A stretch of 64,000 bases of DNA from Bacillota bacterium (GCA_051745185.1 JBNJDV010000001.1:745-64744), one strand, 5' to 3'. Shown: positions 4,546-39,236, counted from the stretch's first letter. Numbers and translations: made by a program. The notes: generated by a model not told the origin, from the letters alone.

Positions 4546-4546
<1 letters not shown>

Positions 4547-4986
4547 TAATTTTCCACTCCTGGTTTTATTATTCTATATTCTTGTTTAATTTGTTTAAGA
4601 TGTTTACTAAGATCAATTTTTTCTTTGGAGTATAATAAGTGTGATATACAGGCACAGTCACTTGAACCAAAACCCTTAATTGGCATTTTGAAATTGTCAC
4701 TTTCTTTTAAATTATTAAGCATATTACACTCAAGTGCTTTTTTAGCATTAAAGATTGCATATTCAACTATTATTGCTCTATCCAACAAATAGTCAATATG
4801 CCAGTGAAACTTTTTTTCTTTACTTAAATGCCTCTCTATTCTACTATTAAGATTTCTCTGAGCTGAACCAATGTAGAAATAATAACCCTTATTATATTTA
4901 AACTTACCTAATGCTCCTATTTTGATTATATCATCTTCTTTTAGATATATTTTTAATATATAAATCCCAGCATTAAAATCACTCAT
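4546..4986 (-). CDS. GIY-YIG nuclease superfamily protein, DUF123 type
   Basis: 146-aa ORF with GIYILKIY, YYFYIGSA, RIERH, HWHIDYL and GFGSSDCACISHLLY, the hallmark pattern of DUF123/Uri-type GIY-YIG proteins. Its TAA stop overlaps the pcrA ATG (TAATG). Confidence 0.8.
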
Positions 4987-5115: not shown

Positions 5116-5192
5116 CTGGCTATAGCGCAGTTTGGTAGCGCGCTTGCTTCGGGAGCAAGAGGTCCCCGGTTCAAATCCGGGTAGCCAGACCA
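5116..5192 (+). tRNA. tRNA-Pro (anticodon CGG), CCA encoded
   Basis: Hand-folded cloverleaf. The acceptor stem CTGGCTA/TAGCCAG has C1:G72 and discriminator A73. D stem is GCGC/GCGC. Anticodon stem CTTGC/GCAAG carries the loop TTCGGGA (anticodon CGG, G37). T arm is CCCGG-TTCAAAT-CCGGG, and the 3' CCA is encoded. Confidence 0.9.
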
Positions 5193-5304
5193 TTTTATTT
5201 TCTATGACACTAAAATATTATAACATAAATAGGGCTAAAATGCATGTTTTGTAGGGATATCAACCCCTATTAATTATAGATATTATCATAAATATATTCA
5301 ACGT

Positions 5305-5347
5305 AAAAAGAGTGATAACTAACTTGAGTTAGGAATCACTCTTTTTA
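5305..5347. terminator. bidirectional rho-independent terminator (tRNA-Pro and peroxiredoxin gene)
   Basis: A long hairpin AGAGTGATAACTAACT-TG-AGTTAGGAATCACTCT is flanked by an A-run on one side and a T-run on the other. It lies between two convergent transcription units. Confidence 0.6.
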
Positions 5348-5362
5348 ATATCATCTGTTTTT

Positions 5363-5806
5363 TTAGTCAATATCTTTTAAATATTCAACTACTCTTTCTA
5401 CATGACCATCAATTTTAACTTTAGGAAACACTTTCATTATTTTTTGTTCTTTTGAAATAATAAAAGTAGATCTTTTATACATTCCAATCATGTTAACCAC
5501 ATCAAACTTTTTGGCAAGTTTTTTATCAACATCTGCAAGTAGTGGATAAGTTAAATCATATTCATCAGCGAATTTTTGATGAGATTCAACACTGTCACTA
5601 CTAACACCTACTACTTTTGTTTTTAACCCCTCCAGGGTTTTCAACTGCTTTTGAAAAGCAACTGCTTCCTTTTTTCAGCCCGAAGTATTATCTTTGATGT
5701 AGAAAAACATTACTAATCTCTTGTCTTTAAAATCTTCGCGGCAGTGTTCTTTACCATTTTGGTCATTTAAGCAAAAATCAGGTAACTTTTCTCCTACTCT
5801 AATCAT
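5363..5806 (-). CDS. Bcp/PrxQ-type peroxiredoxin with in-frame TGA at the peroxidatic position (candidate selenocysteine protein)
   Basis: The ORF track gives only a 93-aa TTG-started C-terminal fragment (5363..5644). The same frame continues upstream to an ATG at 5806 (SD GGAAGGG, 5-nt spacer): MIRVGEKLPDFCLNDQNGKEHCREDFKDKRLVMFFYIKDNTSG-TGA(5675-5677)-KKEAVAFQKQLKTLEG... The TGA falls exactly where Bcp has FYPKxxTPGC. Total length is 148 codons, the normal Bcp size. Confidence 0.8.
5625..5664 (-). promoter_or_regulatory. candidate SECIS-like hairpins downstream of the in-frame UGA
   Basis: Hairpin 1 is 11 nt after the UGA: CAGUUGCUUU-UCA-AAAGCAGUUG, a 10-bp stem including 2 G-U pairs. Hairpin 2 spans +36 to +50: AACCC-UGGAG-GGGUU, with a G-containing apical loop. 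Both were hand-folded, and which one acts as the SECIS (if either does) is unresolved. Confidence 0.35.
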
Positions 5807-5893
5807 CTTTACCCTTCCTTTCATAACAATACTTAAACTTATATATTATAGTTGTTTATTTTTAGATATAATCCTTCATTTTAAGGTTTTATA

Positions 5894-6685
5894 CTATAAA
5901 TTTGAACTGCTTGCTCCACCGTCTAATACAATTGATGCTCCATTTAAATAACTTGCTTTTTTAGAACATAAGAAGGTTACAAATTCACCTAATTCCATCG
6001 GTTCACCTAATCTTTTTAAGGGTATATTACTGCTTTTTGCATTTAATGCTTCTTCATAAGTTTTGAATTTGCCGTCTTTTACCTGTTTTTCTAAAAGATA
6101 TTTGACTCGATCTGTTTCATGCAGGCCTTGAAGAATTGCATTAACCCTTATTTTAGGACCCAATTCTTTAGTAAGGGTTTTCATTAAACCAATCACAGAC
6201 ATCCGTACTGAATTAGAAAGTACTAAATCTTCAATAGCTTCCTTTACACTTATTGATGTTAGGTTAACAATAGTACCCCCGTCCCCTTCTTTTAAATACT
6301 CAAGAGACTCTCTTACCAATCTCACTACACTCATAACTAAAAGATCAAATGACTTATACCAGTCTTCATCACTAGTTTCAACAAATGATTTACTGGGTGG
6401 CCCACCTGCTGATGTTACTAAATGATCTAATCTACCATAAGTACTATAGGTTTTTTCAACTAATTTTTTTATATCTTCTTTTTTAGTAATATCAGCTACC
6501 TGACCAACTACCTGACCTTTATTTAAACTTTTTAACTCTTGTACTGTATTGTTTAATCTCTCCTCATTACGCCCATTAACCACTACATTTACACCTTCCT
6601 TAACTAAAGCAGTTGCAACTGCTTTACCTAATCCACTGCTTGATGCAGTTATTAAAGCACTATTTCCCTTAATCTTTAAATCCAT
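5894..6685 (-). CDS. SDR-family oxidoreductase (3-oxoacyl-ACP reductase-like)
   Basis: Contains the Rossmann motif TASSSGLGKA and SDR-typical length and C-terminal GASIVLDGG. I moved the start to ATG 6685 (SD AAGGGGTG); the track start 6697 is a GTG inside that SD. Confidence 0.85.
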   Translation of the reverse strand: MDLKIKGNSALITASSSGLGKAVATALVKEGVNVVVNGRNEERLNNTVQELKSLNKGQVVGQVADITKKEDIKKLVEKTYSTYGRLDHLVTSAGGPPSKSFVETSDEDWYKSFDLLVMSVVRLVRESLEYLKEGDGGTIVNLTSISVKEAIEDLVLSNSVRMSVIGLMKTLTKELGPKIRVNAILQGLHETDRVKYLLEKQVKDGKFKTYEEALNAKSSNIPLKRLGEPMELGEFVTFLCSKKASYLNGASIVLDGGASSSNL

Positions 6686-6726
6686 AATATTTAACACCCC
6701 TTTATTTATGAAAATAAGTTAAGAAA

Positions 6727-7620
6727 TTAATTAAATATTTTATTAGCGGAATAAATTATTTTTTTAATTAACTCATTACCTTTTCTATTTTTATTAAAAG
6801 CAAGATAAAACTTGCGGGACAGATCCATTTCACTAACTTTAATTTCTTTTATTCTTCCATATTCATCTGCTTTACTAGAAGCAAACTTTGAAACAAATGA
6901 AATACCCAATCCTGCTTGAACAGCAGCTATAATCGCTTCTGTACTTCCTAATCTACATTTAATATTTAATTCATTATACTGAACACCTGCATTTTTAAAA
7001 CCCTCAAGCATTGCTTTTCTAGTGCCTGAACCAACTTCTCTGATTAATATACTTTCTGCTTTTAAATCCTGCATCTTTATTTTATCCTTCTTAGTTAAAC
7101 TATGCCCCAAAGGAGTTATTAACCTAAGCTCATCTTCAACTATTTCTATAGTTTCATATTTACTATTTGTGGGTTTAGAACCTACTAATATTACATCAAC
7201 TTCCCCTTTTTCTAACAATTCTATCATTTCTGCACTATCACCAACTTCAATACAAGACTTAATCTCTGGATCATTTTTAGAAAAATCAGCTAAGAGGTCT
7301 GGTAATATATATTCAGAAGGGATTGTACTAGAACCAATTATTATATTTTTATATAACTTATCCTTTTTGTTTTCAACATCTATTAAAAGTTTTTCCCACT
7401 TCTCTATTATATCTTTAGCATTTCTATATACAGCTTTACCGGAAGGCGTTAAATTAATATTTCCTTTTTCTTTATAGACAAGTTCTGTATCGAATCTTTC
7501 TTCTAATGCCTTGATCTGCATACTAATAGCTGGTTGAGTTAATTCCATTTTTTCTGCTGCTAATGAATAACTACCTGTATCGATTAAATTGACAAATATC
7601 TTTAATGTATTTATTTTCAT
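6727..7620 (-). CDS. LysR-family transcriptional regulator
   Basis: N-terminal wHTH (LKIFVNLIDTGSYSLAAEKMELTQPAISMQIKALEERF) plus a LysR substrate-binding domain. I set the start to ATG 7620 (SD AGGTG), which removes a 6-codon extension from the track ORF. Confidence 0.9.
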   Translation of the reverse strand: MKINTLKIFVNLIDTGSYSLAAEKMELTQPAISMQIKALEERFDTELVYKEKGNINLTPSGKAVYRNAKDIIEKWEKLLIDVENKKDKLYKNIIIGSSTIPSEYILPDLLADFSKNDPEIKSCIEVGDSAEMIELLEKGEVDVILVGSKPTNSKYETIEIVEDELRLITPLGHSLTKKDKIKMQDLKAESILIREVGSGTRKAMLEGFKNAGVQYNELNIKCRLGSTEAIIAAVQAGLGISFVSKFASSKADEYGRIKEIKVSEMDLSRKFYLAFNKNRKGNELIKKIIYSANKIFN

Positions 7621-7667
7621 CCTAACACCTACTTCCATAGTGTGGCTATTAAATCTTTTACAAATTT

Positions 7668-11048: not shown

Positions 11049-12443
11049 TTATCCTTCCTTATTTAAAATATCTTTAGCAATTACAATCCCGGAGACTGAA
11101 GCCTGCATTAATCCTCTGGTAATACCTGCTCCATCACCTGCTGTATAAAGATTATTAACATTTGTTTCTAAGTTATTATTTACATCTAACCTGTTTGAAT
11201 AAAACTTAACTTCTACCCCATAAAGCAGGGTATCTCTTGAATAAAGACCAGGTGCTAAGTTATCCAATGCTTCAAGCATCTCAATTATTCCTTTAAGATG
11301 ACGATATGGAATTACTAAACTTAAATCCCCAGGAGTGGCTTCTTTTAAAGTTGGTTCAATTATTCCACGATCTATCCTAACCGGAGTTGAACGATGTCCA
11401 TCCAATAAGTCGCCAAGCCTTTGTACTAAAACTCCACCACCTAATAGATTAGCTAATTTTGCTATGTTTTTTCCATAAGTAATTGGTTCATGAAATGGTT
11501 CAGTAAATGTTTTACTAACTAATAATGCGAAATTAGTGTTCTCTGTTTTGATATCAGAGTGGCTGTGTCCGTTTACTGTTATTAACCCCTGATTGTTTTC
11601 ATTTACTACCTCACCATAGGGTGACATACAAAAAGTCCTTACCTTATCATCAAAAGTTGGTGTTTGGTAGATCAACTTTGATTCATAAAGATTTTCGGTC
11701 AGCTGTTCAGCAATTACCGCAGAGGTTTCTACTCTAACTCCTATATCAACAGGATTAATAGTAGTGTTAATATCCAATTTAGGTGCTAGTGAACCAAGCC
11801 AGGCTGCATTTTCTCGTCCAGGTGCTGTTATTACATATTTTGCATAATATTTTTCATCATTTTTAGTTTTAACACCAATTATTTTATCATCTTCTAGAAT
11901 AAAATCTTTAACATTTGTTTTAAACTTAATATCAACACCCTTACTTTCAATGAATTCCTTCATATTAGAAAGTACTGTTTTTGTATATCCTGTACCTAAA
12001 TGTCTTAACTTTGCTGGTATAAACTTTAATTGAGCTTTTATAGCCTTGGCTTTGATATCATCTAATTTTGATTCATCAACACCAAAGATTCTATCAGGAG
12101 CACCAAATCTTAAATACTCTTTATCAGCATATTTAATCAAATCTTTCAATCGTTGTAATCCAATATACTCCTCTAGATGTCCTCCTATTTTTGGAGAAAG
12201 AGATAGTTTGCCATCACTAAAAGCTCCGGCTCCTCCCCAACCAGATACAACTGAACAACTATCACAATTAATACATCCCATACCTGGATTTTGTTTCATT
12301 GGACATTCTCTTTTGGAAATGTCTTTACCTTTTTCAATCATTAAAATATTCAGGTTTTCATTATTTTTAATTAATTCTAACACAGAAAATATTCCAGTTG
12401 GTCCGGTTCCAACTACTATAACATCATAATTTTTATTACTCAT
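11049..12443 (-). CDS. FAD-dependent protein (COG2509-type NAD(FAD)-utilising dehydrogenase)
   Basis: N-terminal dinucleotide fold DVIVVGTGPTGIF and a Cys-rich insert CPMKQNPGMGCINCDSC. 464 aa. Confidence 0.8.
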   Translation of the reverse strand: MSNKNYDVIVVGTGPTGIFSVLELIKNNENLNILMIEKGKDISKRECPMKQNPGMGCINCDSCSVVSGWGGAGAFSDGKLSLSPKIGGHLEEYIGLQRLKDLIKYADKEYLRFGAPDRIFGVDESKLDDIKAKAIKAQLKFIPAKLRHLGTGYTKTVLSNMKEFIESKGVDIKFKTNVKDFILEDDKIIGVKTKNDEKYYAKYVITAPGRENAAWLGSLAPKLDINTTINPVDIGVRVETSAVIAEQLTENLYESKLIYQTPTFDDKVRTFCMSPYGEVVNENNQGLITVNGHSHSDIKTENTNFALLVSKTFTEPFHEPITYGKNIAKLANLLGGGVLVQRLGDLLDGHRSTPVRIDRGIIEPTLKEATPGDLSLVIPYRHLKGIIEMLEALDNLAPGLYSRDTLLYGVEVKFYSNRLDVNNNLETNVNNLYTAGDGAGITRGLMQASVSGIVIAKDILNKEG

Positions 12444-37168: not shown

Positions 37169-38995
37169 TTATTCTACAGTTACACTTTTTGCTAAGTTTC
37201 TTGGTTGGTCAATATCACAGCCTCTAATTAAAGCAGTATAATATGCTAAAAGCTGTAATGGAACAATTGTAAGTACCCCACTAAAATGATCATTAACTTC
37301 AGGAATATATATTACATGATCTACTACTTCTTCAATATCATATGCATTTTTGTGTACAACTGCAGTAACATCTGCTCCTCTTGCTTTAACTTCAGTAATA
37401 TTACTTAATGTTTTTTCAAAAACGTCTTTTCTAGTAGCTAAGGCAACAACTGGTACATCTTCTTCTATTAAAGCTAAAGTACCATGTTTAAGTTCTCCAG
37501 CGGGATAAGCTTCAGCATGTATATATGAAATCTCCTTTAATTTTAAGGCTCCTTCCATAGCAAGTGTATAGTCAGAATGTCTTCCTATAAAGAAAGCATG
37601 GTCACTTTTGGCATACTCTTTTGCTCTATCTTTCATAACTGATTCACATTCTTTTATCATTTGATCTAAAAGATCCGGTATTTTGATTAATTCCCTTGTT
37701 AGATTTAAGTACTCATTATCTTTTACTTTGTTTTTCCTTTTGGCTAAATATAGAGAGAAAATATAGAAAGCCACAACCATATTCAAATATGCTTTTGTAG
37801 ATGCAACAGAAATTTCCGGTCCAGCTTTAAGTAACATTACATCATCTGCTTCTCTTGCAATACTACTCCCTCTGGAATTGGTAAAGGCAATAACTTTTGC
37901 ACCTTTCTTTTTTGCTAGCCTTAAACTTGCTAAAGTATCACTGGTCTCTCCAGATTGACTTACTGCTATCACTAAATCATTTTCTTTAATCGGTACATTT
38001 CTATATCTATACTCACTAGCAACATCTACTTCTACATTAAGTTCTATTAAGTCCTCTAACAGATACTTTCCAATTAAACCTGAATGATAAGCAGTACCAC
38101 ATGCTATAATGTGGACCTTATTCAAGTTATCAATAAATTCTTGACTTAAATTAAGTTCTTCTAAATTAATACCCTCTGGTGTTACCCGATTTGCCATTAG
38201 TCTTCTTACTGCATCAGGTTGTTCATATATTTCTTTTAACATATAGTGGTCATAACCCTGTTTTTCTGCCATTTCCGGATCCCAGTCAACATGATATACT
38301 TCTTTATCTATTTCAGCTAGTTGAAAATCATATAGTTTAACACTATCTTTATCAATTACGGCAAACTCACCATCTTCTAAAATATAGAAGTCTTTTGTCT
38401 TTTCTAGAAATGCCGGGATATCTGAAGCAATATAGTTTTCATCTTCACCTAAACCAATTATTAAAGGACTATCTTTTCTAGCTACAAATATTTTACCTGG
38501 TTCATGTTTTGTTAAAATAGTAAGTGCATATGAACCTTCTAACTTTTGAATCGTCAATCTTAAGGCTTCTAATACATTACCTTTGTAGTTTTCTTCAATA
38601 AGATGAGCAATTACTTCAGTATCTGTTTCAGAATTAAATTTATGACCTTTTTCTTTTAAGACCTTTTTTATATCCTGAAAGTTTTCGATTATACCGTTAT
38701 GAGCAATTACAAAATTATTGTTACAATCAGTATGAGGATGAGAATTAAAATCTGATGGTTTCCCATGTGTTGCCCATCTAGTATGCCCGATACCTATTTT
38801 ACCACCATTTATATCGTCTTTAATACTCTCTTTTAAAAACTCAATTTTACCTTTTTTCTTCACTACATCTATATTTAAACCATCATTAACTGCTATACCC
38901 GAAGAATCATAACCTCTGTACTCTAATTTCTTCAATCCATCATAAAGAATTGATGCTGCTTTATTTTCTCCAACATAACCTACAATACCACACAT
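37169..38995 (-). CDS. glmS: glutamine--fructose-6-phosphate aminotransferase
   Basis: 608 aa with an N-terminal MCGIVGY nucleophile, two SIS domains and the C-terminus LAKSVTVE. Confidence 0.97.
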   Translation of the reverse strand: MCGIVGYVGENKAASILYDGLKKLEYRGYDSSGIAVNDGLNIDVVKKKGKIEFLKESIKDDINGGKIGIGHTRWATHGKPSDFNSHPHTDCNNNFVIAHNGIIENFQDIKKVLKEKGHKFNSETDTEVIAHLIEENYKGNVLEALRLTIQKLEGSYALTILTKHEPGKIFVARKDSPLIIGLGEDENYIASDIPAFLEKTKDFYILEDGEFAVIDKDSVKLYDFQLAEIDKEVYHVDWDPEMAEKQGYDHYMLKEIYEQPDAVRRLMANRVTPEGINLEELNLSQEFIDNLNKVHIIACGTAYHSGLIGKYLLEDLIELNVEVDVASEYRYRNVPIKENDLVIAVSQSGETSDTLASLRLAKKKGAKVIAFTNSRGSSIAREADDVMLLKAGPEISVASTKAYLNMVVAFYIFSLYLAKRKNKVKDNEYLNLTRELIKIPDLLDQMIKECESVMKDRAKEYAKSDHAFFIGRHSDYTLAMEGALKLKEISYIHAEAYPAGELKHGTLALIEEDVPVVALATRKDVFEKTLSNITEVKARGADVTAVVHKNAYDIEEVVDHVIYIPEVNDHFSGVLTIVPLQLLAYYTALIRGCDIDQPRNLAKSVTVE

Positions 38996-39064
38996 ATATA
39001 TTTACCTCCATTGAATTTATATTTATTTATATCATTATTTATTTTAAATTAATTATCATGATAT

Positions 39065-39210
39065 GTATTTCTGATTTTTTTGTCCCGGCAATTACTTGCT
39101 GGATTTGTAAAATCAGTTGAGGTTTAATACCAAAACCTGGAAAGATCCGCCGATGGTTCGATAACTTTCCACCTCGTCAGCTTTTTATTTAAAAAGCCCG
39201 GGCGCTTTTA
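39065..39210 (-). ncRNA. glmS ribozyme (GlcN6P-dependent self-cleaving riboswitch)
   Basis: The minus strand reads A|GCGCCCGGGCUUUUUAAAUAAAAAGCUGACGAGGUGGAAAGUUAUCGAACCAUCGGCGGAUCUUUCCAGG... This contains the conserved AGCGCC cleavage-site core, GACGAGG and GUUAUCGAA...UCGGCGGAU, enclosed by the UGGAAAG/CUUUCCA helix. It lies in the glmS 5' leader. The 3' boundary is approximate. Confidence 0.85.
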
Positions 39211-39236
39211 ATTATAATTATTTTCCACCTCCTTAT

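Follow-up and report, generated by a model that had tools for sequence, protein, structure and literature searches.

The stretch of DNA analysed here (the window) comprises 64,000 nucleotides (nt) from a Bacillota bacterium (GCA_051745185.1, JBNJDV010000001.1:745-64744). On its minus strand, at positions 5363-5806, lies a gene which, judged by sequence comparison, very probably encodes a genuine selenoprotein: one BCP/PrxQ-type peroxiredoxin of 147 residues, in which the peroxidatic Cys would be replaced by selenocysteine (Sec, U44). The gene consists of 147 codons and a TAA stop in a single frame. Its sole internal stop is a TGA at codon 44 (5675-5677), and no frameshift is present. Translation could be initiated at the ATG at 5804-5806, which is preceded at a distance of 5 nt by the Shine-Dalgarno (SD) region AAGGAAGGG (5812-5820, with GGAAGGG at 5812-5818); both signals were recognized by reading of the sequence. 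Every ortholog has a GAAAGGAAGG/AAGGAG-type SD motif at the corresponding position ahead of its N-terminal start codon.

The mechanical list of open reading frames (ORFs) cuts this gene in two, a TTG-started ORF of 93 amino acids (aa) at 5363-5644 and an ORF of 49 aa ending at the TGA. The first-pass annotation had regarded the 93-aa ORF as a C-terminal fragment, the frame of which continues through one TGA to an SD-preceded ATG at 5806 and gives a product of 147 residues free of other stops and frameshifts. Sequence and translation agree with this description on every point. The complete selenoprotein coding sequence (CDS) at 5363-5806 is further supported by the Pfam match, by AlphaFold2 (AF2) modelling with Foldseek comparison and by the ratio of nonsynonymous to synonymous substitution rates (dN/dS).

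Protein searches were run with U written as Cys. The product matches the Pfam family AhpC-TSA (PF00578) over residues 4-125 (E=4e-35, 120.9 bits at a gathering cut-off of 26). It can be aligned end to end with the BCP crystal structure 5enu (E=6e-23), the TGA falling on the Cys of ...NTPGC..., which bears out the full-length Bcp alignment claimed earlier and the placement of the TGA at the peroxidatic Cys. The top 12 sequence matches in PDB and the top 19 Foldseek matches in PDB all belong to BCP/PrxQ, the latter with template modelling (TM) scores of 0.90-0.95. The AF2 model, based on a 32-sequence alignment (a shallower alignment gave a predicted local distance difference test score, pLDDT, of 60 and was discarded), reached a pLDDT of 95.1 and a predicted TM score of 0.90, with residue 44 situated in the first turn of helix 42-53. 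Among NCBIfam models, PrxQ (NF053650, 108.7 bits, cut-off 260) and Bcp (NF006960, 94.3 bits, cut-off 140) rank first, both under their equivalog cut-offs, and PrxU (NF040737) scores 38.5 bits with a cut-off of 270. The protein is a divergent member of the BCP/PrxQ family, an equivalog of neither characterised enzyme, and is not PrxU.

The active site can be followed residue by residue. Alignment with the peroxidatic Cys (CP) of BCP structures and with orthologs puts the in-frame TGA, as the predicted Sec, at the peroxidatic position of T41-S-G-U44. Thr41 and Arg112 are invariant in alignment A6. Arg112 (codon at 5471-5473), the conserved active-site Arg of peroxiredoxins, is aligned with the Arg of ...ERSTF... 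in BCP structures. Compared with the Cys-containing BCP/PrxQ proteins (E. coli Bcp; Xanthomonas campestris PrxQ, 5iiz/3gkm; Burkholderia BCP, 5enu; Sulfolobus Bcp1, 3drn), the fold is the same (TM 0.90-0.95, ~30-37% identity), as are the Thr and the Arg, and the catalytic residue likewise sits close to the N-terminus of helix alpha2. The window protein differs from them in four respects: the predicted Sec for Cys, Val at CP+5, Ile for Pro, and a loop before Arg112 shortened by 7 residues, the last being common to its clade. The Pro of the PxxxTxxC motif is replaced, as ortholog comparison shows, by Ile37 (ATC, 5696-5698), an Ile that each of the 15 genes examined from the FFYI-type (Halanaerobiales-type) clade has at this position; Pro is present in 78 of the 79 Cys homologs. 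Coupling of the Ile-for-Pro exchange to Sec was considered and rejected, given that four Sec (TGA) BCPs keep the Pro and about 10 of 150 Cys-type BCP relatives lack it (V, S, L, K or H instead). The resolving Cys, reported earlier as absent at +5 with Val in its place, is indeed replaced by Val throughout the clade, and most close Cys homologs have it there. No Cys is conserved clade-wide, Cys12 and Cys22 each being absent from several members.

The TGA itself is conserved. The ortholog set was widened by a metagenome scan and by exact-protein look-ups, and TGA stands at the peroxidatic codon in 18 other related genes (~38-97% protein identity), in contrast to the TGC or TGT at the same codon of 79 more distant homologous loci. 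These 18 genes are divided into 14 of the Ile-type clade (L001-L008, L010-L014, L096) and 4 Pro-type relatives (L097-L100). The motif FFYI[KR]DNT[PS]G-TGA is read in 13 loci, in L096 and in the window, and the 79 distant homologs read YFYPKDxT[PS]G-TG[CT]. The relatives L097-L100 are more divergent BCPs which keep the motif Pro; inspection of their DNA verified that they, too, have TGA at this codon. In a scan with one genome per species, 8 loci from metagenome-assembled genomes (MAGs) of Halanaerobiales (69-90% protein identity) all carry TGA at this codon, and a Chloroflexota homolog (38% identity) carries TGC. The comparison of orthologous codons that had been proposed thus gave TGA in the relatives and Cys codons farther away, and the N-terminal part was intact.

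Among 11 orthologs, codons 2-43 give a dN/dS (Nei-Gojobori) of 0.126 and codons 45-146 one of 0.114, and further stops or frameshifts were found in none of the orthologs. TGA terminates 10 of the 77 long ORFs of the window, including rimI, whose family profile match stops there. Therefore, the standard bacterial code (code 11) is in use. The substitution ratios, together with the conserved SD and start codon and the normal use of TGA as a stop, indicate that translation of the protein includes the 43 codons upstream of the TGA.

A soda-lake sediment contig (L100:1002-2935) carries a putative Sec-BCP relative with the TGA and the two-hairpin element described below intact. Its homology ends after about residue 113, beside a DDE_Tnp_1 transposase gene, and this copy looks as if it has been disrupted by an insertion sequence.

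The DNA 3' of the TGA is unusually conserved across orthologs. RNAfold predicts two hairpins after the UGA, at +11..+33 and +36..+50, exactly where they had been drawn in the first-pass annotation, and both are present in every clade member. Hairpin 1 (5642-5664, minus strand, RNAfold) has a 10-bp stem and a small U-rich loop without G. Hairpin 2 (5625-5639, minus strand), AACCCU-GGA-GGGGUU with the loop GGA at 5631-5633, is the best candidate for the selenocysteine insertion sequence (SECIS) bound by SelB, as suggested by its conservation, RNAalifold and covariation. The pairwise fraction of synonymous differences has its minimum (0.13, compared with 0.41 gene-wide) at codons 57-62. Hairpin 2 reads ACC CTG GAR GGG; its ACC, CTG and GGG, which have four- or six-fold degeneracy, never vary, in a genome that is AT-rich. 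Hairpin 2 is predicted in every ortholog, and it alone remains in the consensus structure that RNAalifold derived from 14 sequences. Its GGA loop stands at +42..+44 in 15 of 15 aligned sequences, within U-GGA-R at +41..+45. Even in L097 (47% identity) and L100, where the stem is altered by compensatory substitutions (C-G to U-A, A-U to G-C, outer A-U to C-G), the GGA is still at +42..+44. Double changes were counted in 3 of 7 pairs among 15 sequences; none of 500 shuffles matched the covariation score, and slid controls scored lower.

The loop and 3' stem of hairpin 2 (CUG GAR GGG) specify residues L58-E59-G60, which are invariant in the TGA-bearing clade only and vary in the Cys homologs. This pattern suggests that the RNA signal may constrain the protein sequence at these positions.

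In hairpin 1, 82.5% of cells are paired, and covariation is also seen (U-A to C-G between L001 and L003; G-U to G-C; U-G to U-A). The loop varies (UCA, CUUUC, AUUUA, CUUUA) and never contains G. The register is offset by 2 nt in the divergent L010, L011, L097 and L100. A single common register for hairpin 1 fails on this shift between subclades, and RNAalifold omits the hairpin from the consensus.

Two further loci provide independent comparisons. L098 (511-978) has a lone hairpin with an A-G-U-U loop at +17..+20, and L099 (163-606) has a lone hairpin with the same U-GGA-G loop at +21..+25, both at the canonical distance. By their sequences these appear to be two other Pro-retaining BCP lineages with an independent TGA at the peroxidatic codon.

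According to the model of bacterial SECIS (bSECIS) elements, a stem of 4-16 bp carries an apical loop of 3-9 nt with G in the first two loop positions, the spacing from UGA to the apical loop is 16-37 nt, and the folding energy is <= -7.5 kcal/mol; the loop pattern is N1-G-[G|U]-N-N2, where N1 and N2 pair (PMC13188914). With a stem of 5-9 bp and the loop U-GGA-R, hairpin 2 agrees with this model in loop and stem. It resembles the canonical bacterial SECIS (E. coli fdhF type) as a stem-loop in the CDS 3' of the UGA, with a small loop bearing G-G at positions 2-3, a closing N1-N2 pair and an upper stem of 5-9 bp. It differs in that its loop is 40 nt away, a second conserved hairpin fills the gap, and its own stability is slightly weak in relation to -7.5 kcal/mol. 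Judged by sequence conservation and covariation, SelB most likely binds hairpin 2, with hairpin 1 probably serving as a folded spacer.

Alternatively, hairpin 1 could be the SelB-binding SECIS, and hairpin 2 could be employed otherwise, in ribosome pausing, in mRNA stability or in helping hairpin 1 to fold. Hairpin 1 begins 11 nt past the UGA, and the minimal E. coli SECIS (fdhF system) is located about 11 nt past the UGA as well. A hairpin exists at this site in every clade member, and the single SECIS hairpins of the independent L098 and L099 occupy that position too, the loop of hairpin 2 lying beyond the 16-37 nt of the model (PMC13188914). However, the loop of hairpin 1 is variable and lacks the consensus G, and the register is shifted by 2 nt between subclades, whereas it is hairpin 2 that holds the invariant U-GGA-R, the strongest synonymous constraint and the covariation, and the same loop is carried by the only hairpin of L099. 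This assignment is therefore regarded as unlikely, though it is the most durable of the alternatives considered here.

Taking hairpin 2 as the binding element, decoding could proceed as follows. Translation would begin at the ATG at 5806. When the UGA (5677-5675) enters the A site, the downstream SECIS within the CDS would recruit SelB with Sec-tRNA(Sec), and Sec would be inserted without termination. The SECIS would be a two-hairpin module, in which the U-GGA-R of hairpin 2 would be bound by SelB; hairpin 1, situated at the canonical site of a bacterial SECIS, would probably act as a folded spacer or bridge bringing hairpin 2 near the ribosome-bound factor. In a stronger form of this proposal, the clade uses a non-canonical, "distal" bSECIS, whose SelB-binding hairpin, 40 nt past the UGA, works only through the intervening folded hairpin, which places it at the mRNA entrance of the ribosome. 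This stronger form is put forward tentatively and with considerable doubt. If it were true, the distal layout would represent a distinct architectural class of bSECIS, with the fixation of L58-E59-G60 in the enzyme as a by-product.

Regarding the enzyme itself, peroxiredoxin chemistry suggests that the U44 selenolate, activated by Thr41 and Arg112, could reduce H2O2 or organic peroxides and be converted into the selenenic acid. Since the clade has no conserved resolving Cys, recycling could be carried out by an external thiol reductant, thioredoxin or a similar one, as in a "1-Sec" peroxiredoxin.

Published surveys count Halanaerobiales among the Sec-using bacteria: the recorded Sec users include Halanaerobium praevalens (5 selenoproteins), H. 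saccharolyticum (4), Halobacteroides halobius (3) and Acetohalobium arabaticum (8) (PMC5029168, Table S2), and a tRNA-Sec is predicted for H. praevalens (PMC5330540). Nevertheless, a number of observations weigh against the decoding of this UGA as Sec by the proposed element. No selA, selB, selC or selD was detected in the 64-kb window by the tRNA scan and by profiling of 20 large ORFs. A literature search found no Halanaerobium proteomics mentioning the peroxiredoxin. With respect to the RNA, the loop of hairpin 2 begins 40 nt (counted as UGGAG) or 41 nt (counted as GGA) past the UGA, outside the 16-37 nt of the model, and hairpin 2 alone folds at -5.0 to -7.6 kcal/mol, mostly slightly weaker than the model value. 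The spacing of hairpin 1 (~20 nt) fits, its loop has no G, and so neither hairpin agrees with the bSECIS model in every respect. Folding energies are unexceptional in comparison with shuffles (z = -0.8 to -1.3) and were not used as evidence. The covariance-model search which had been advised for 5600-5680 returned no SECIS family: Rfam, applied to the window at gathering thresholds and to 5560-5720 at permissive E-values, gave chance matches with E>=1 only. The two-hairpin module as a whole folds at -12.0 to -24.5 kcal/mol across orthologs, and some bSECIS elements fall outside the model according to the review (PMC13188914).

The only tRNA in the window is tRNA-Pro, and tRNA scans of 19 related loci likewise gave tRNA-Pro only. 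No other split selenoprotein gene was found within the window.

The UGA could also be read as a standard amino acid, either in a reassigned code (table 4 or 25, giving Trp or Gly) or by near-cognate read-through (Trp or Cys). Apparently full-length database proteins do have Trp at the TGA site (P0001-P0018); these readings come from gene callers that applied code 4 to short contigs. Such decoding is very improbable: TGA closes 10 of the 77 long ORFs of the window, rimI among them; Trp or Gly at the peroxidatic site would kill the enzyme, yet purifying selection is strong; a conserved hairpin of the SECIS type would be needless; and the lineage is documented as Sec-using (PMC5029168).

Even less credible is a pseudogene, that is, a BCP gene with a nonsense mutation at the catalytic Cys codon (TGC or TGT to TGA). 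The TGA is one substitution away from TGC and TGT, and public callers give split ORFs of 43 and 80 aa, as for a broken gene. This interpretation is effectively refuted by ortholog conservation: the identical TGA recurs in 18 other genes across the whole range of identities, dN/dS is ~0.12 on each side of it, no ortholog has acquired an additional stop or frameshift, and the SD, the start codon and the downstream RNA structure are all conserved. A Sec-decoded PrxQ/Bcp peroxidase, proposed from the beginning in preference to a pseudogene, is strongly favoured because TGA is conserved in the relatives as opposed to Cys in the outgroups, purifying selection is equal on both sides, the SD and start are kept, the SECIS-type hairpin covaries, TGA otherwise serves as a normal stop and the lineage uses Sec. 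The arrangement would be more than a product of chance, since the TGA, both halves of the frame and both hairpins are conserved and hairpin 2 covaries. Finally, the production of a 43-aa N-terminal peptide and a separately initiated C-terminal thioredoxin-fold fragment, as the 93-aa TTG-started ORF of the callers might imply, is hardly conceivable, as the C-terminal piece has no conserved start codon or SD, its called starts differ among orthologs, it would lack beta1-beta3 and the catalytic residue, and the fold is modelled confidently only as one chain.

The consequences for annotation are apparent in public data. Besides the Trp readings, other database entries are shortened to 80, 81, 84, 93 or 95 aa with inconsistent starts, and in one MAG the NCBI annotation breaks the gene into ORFs of 43 and 80 aa. 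The family is systematically mis-annotated in public gene calls; mis-calls, as Trp readings or as splits into 43-aa and 80-95-aa ORFs, comprise P0001-P0018, P0021, P0022 and L093:9800-10243.

Selenoproteins of this kind are already known, and the predicted selenoprotein of the window belongs with them. "Peroxiredoxin (Prx), COG1225 (Bcp), TxxU" is an established bacterial selenoprotein family (PMC9312934; PMC13188914), which comprises 91 genes in 78 organisms (PMC5029168, Table 3) and for which several independent conversions of Cys to Sec have been described (PMC1794560, Table 1). The window protein shares with it the Bcp-type AhpC/TSA domain, the predicted Sec at the peroxidatic T-x-x-U, the widespread Cys homologs and the occurrence in anaerobes. 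The window clade is distinguished by Ile for Pro, by the lack of a resolving Cys and by the putative two-hairpin SECIS with its loop 40 nt from the UGA.

PrxU of Eubacterium acidaminophilum, which had been cited as a precedent, is reportedly a Sec-containing peroxiredoxin, said to have been described by Sohling et al. in 2001. As an example of a peroxiredoxin with Sec at the peroxidatic position in a strictly anaerobic Firmicute, it remains apt. As a relative of the window protein it does not (38.5 bits against a cut-off of 270), since PrxU belongs to another peroxiredoxin subfamily, with a profile of 233 positions in comparison with the 147 residues of the window protein.

Thus, Sec-peroxiredoxins of the Bcp type have been catalogued before, and the sole feature with some, as yet unproven, novelty is the two-hairpin SECIS with its out-of-range loop and the imprint at L58-E59-G60. 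The literature search found no paper on two-hairpin or distal bSECIS elements. Current understanding is not overturned. With the annotation corrected, halophilic, fermentative anaerobes would regain an antioxidant enzyme in full in their proteome. The gene is also a further well-supported example of Sec taking the place of Cys, here in a BCP of the 1-Cys type and in a lineage that is strictly anaerobic and hypersaline. The two-hairpin element offers a testable example of a bacterial SECIS just beyond the consensus of prediction tools.

Downstream of the stop codon, a long hairpin ending in a U-run (5304-5347, minus strand) is a strong predicted intrinsic terminator. It was recognized with RNAfold (dG -20.4 kcal/mol, z = -5.5), none of 200 shuffles being equally stable; a simple terminator scan reported no terminator, and the hairpin was seen only on direct folding. 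This terminator may be common to the peroxiredoxin gene and to the tRNA-Pro(CGG) gene convergent to it (5116-5192, plus strand, tRNA scan). The convergent tRNA-Pro(CGG) is found in the window and in L001-L008, L013, L014, L093, L095 and L096, and the downstream order of convergent tRNA-Pro(CGG), DUF123, pcrA and ligA is universal in the Halanaerobiales loci. The DUF123 gene (4546-4986, minus strand) abuts the start of pcrA, base 4546 being common to both, and its place upstream of pcrA/ligA is kept in all orthologous loci.

Upstream of the peroxiredoxin gene lie genes for an SDR-family oxidoreductase (5894-6697, minus strand; Pfam adh_short_C2, E=1e-49) and a LysR-family regulator (6727-7638, minus strand; Pfam HTH_1 and LysR_substrate). 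These had been suggested to form a redox-stress unit with the peroxiredoxin gene. Their co-directional upstream position in the window is confirmed, but they are adjacent to the peroxiredoxin gene in only some of the loci (the window, L002, L003, L013 and L096). At the other loci they stand farther off, survive only as a remnant or went undetected, and in L004 the site is occupied by pepF, so that such a unit is weakly supported.

Across the whole window, the minus strand holds 76 of the 77 long ORFs, an extreme co-orientation that takes in DNA repair genes, groEL and an [FeFe]-hydrogenase group A6 cluster (~20.5-24.4 kb). A 464-aa ORF (11049-12443, minus strand) has no NCBIfam match at 1e-10, and its ortholog in L093 has only PF21688 (FAD-depend_C) and faint FAD-oxidoreductase matches. 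A glmS ribozyme (Rfam, 111 bits) is located at 39061-39217 (minus strand), upstream of a 608-aa ORF (37169-38995), which is presumably glmS. The part of the window from ~45 to 64 kb is taken, judging by position only, to be a ribosomal-protein region.

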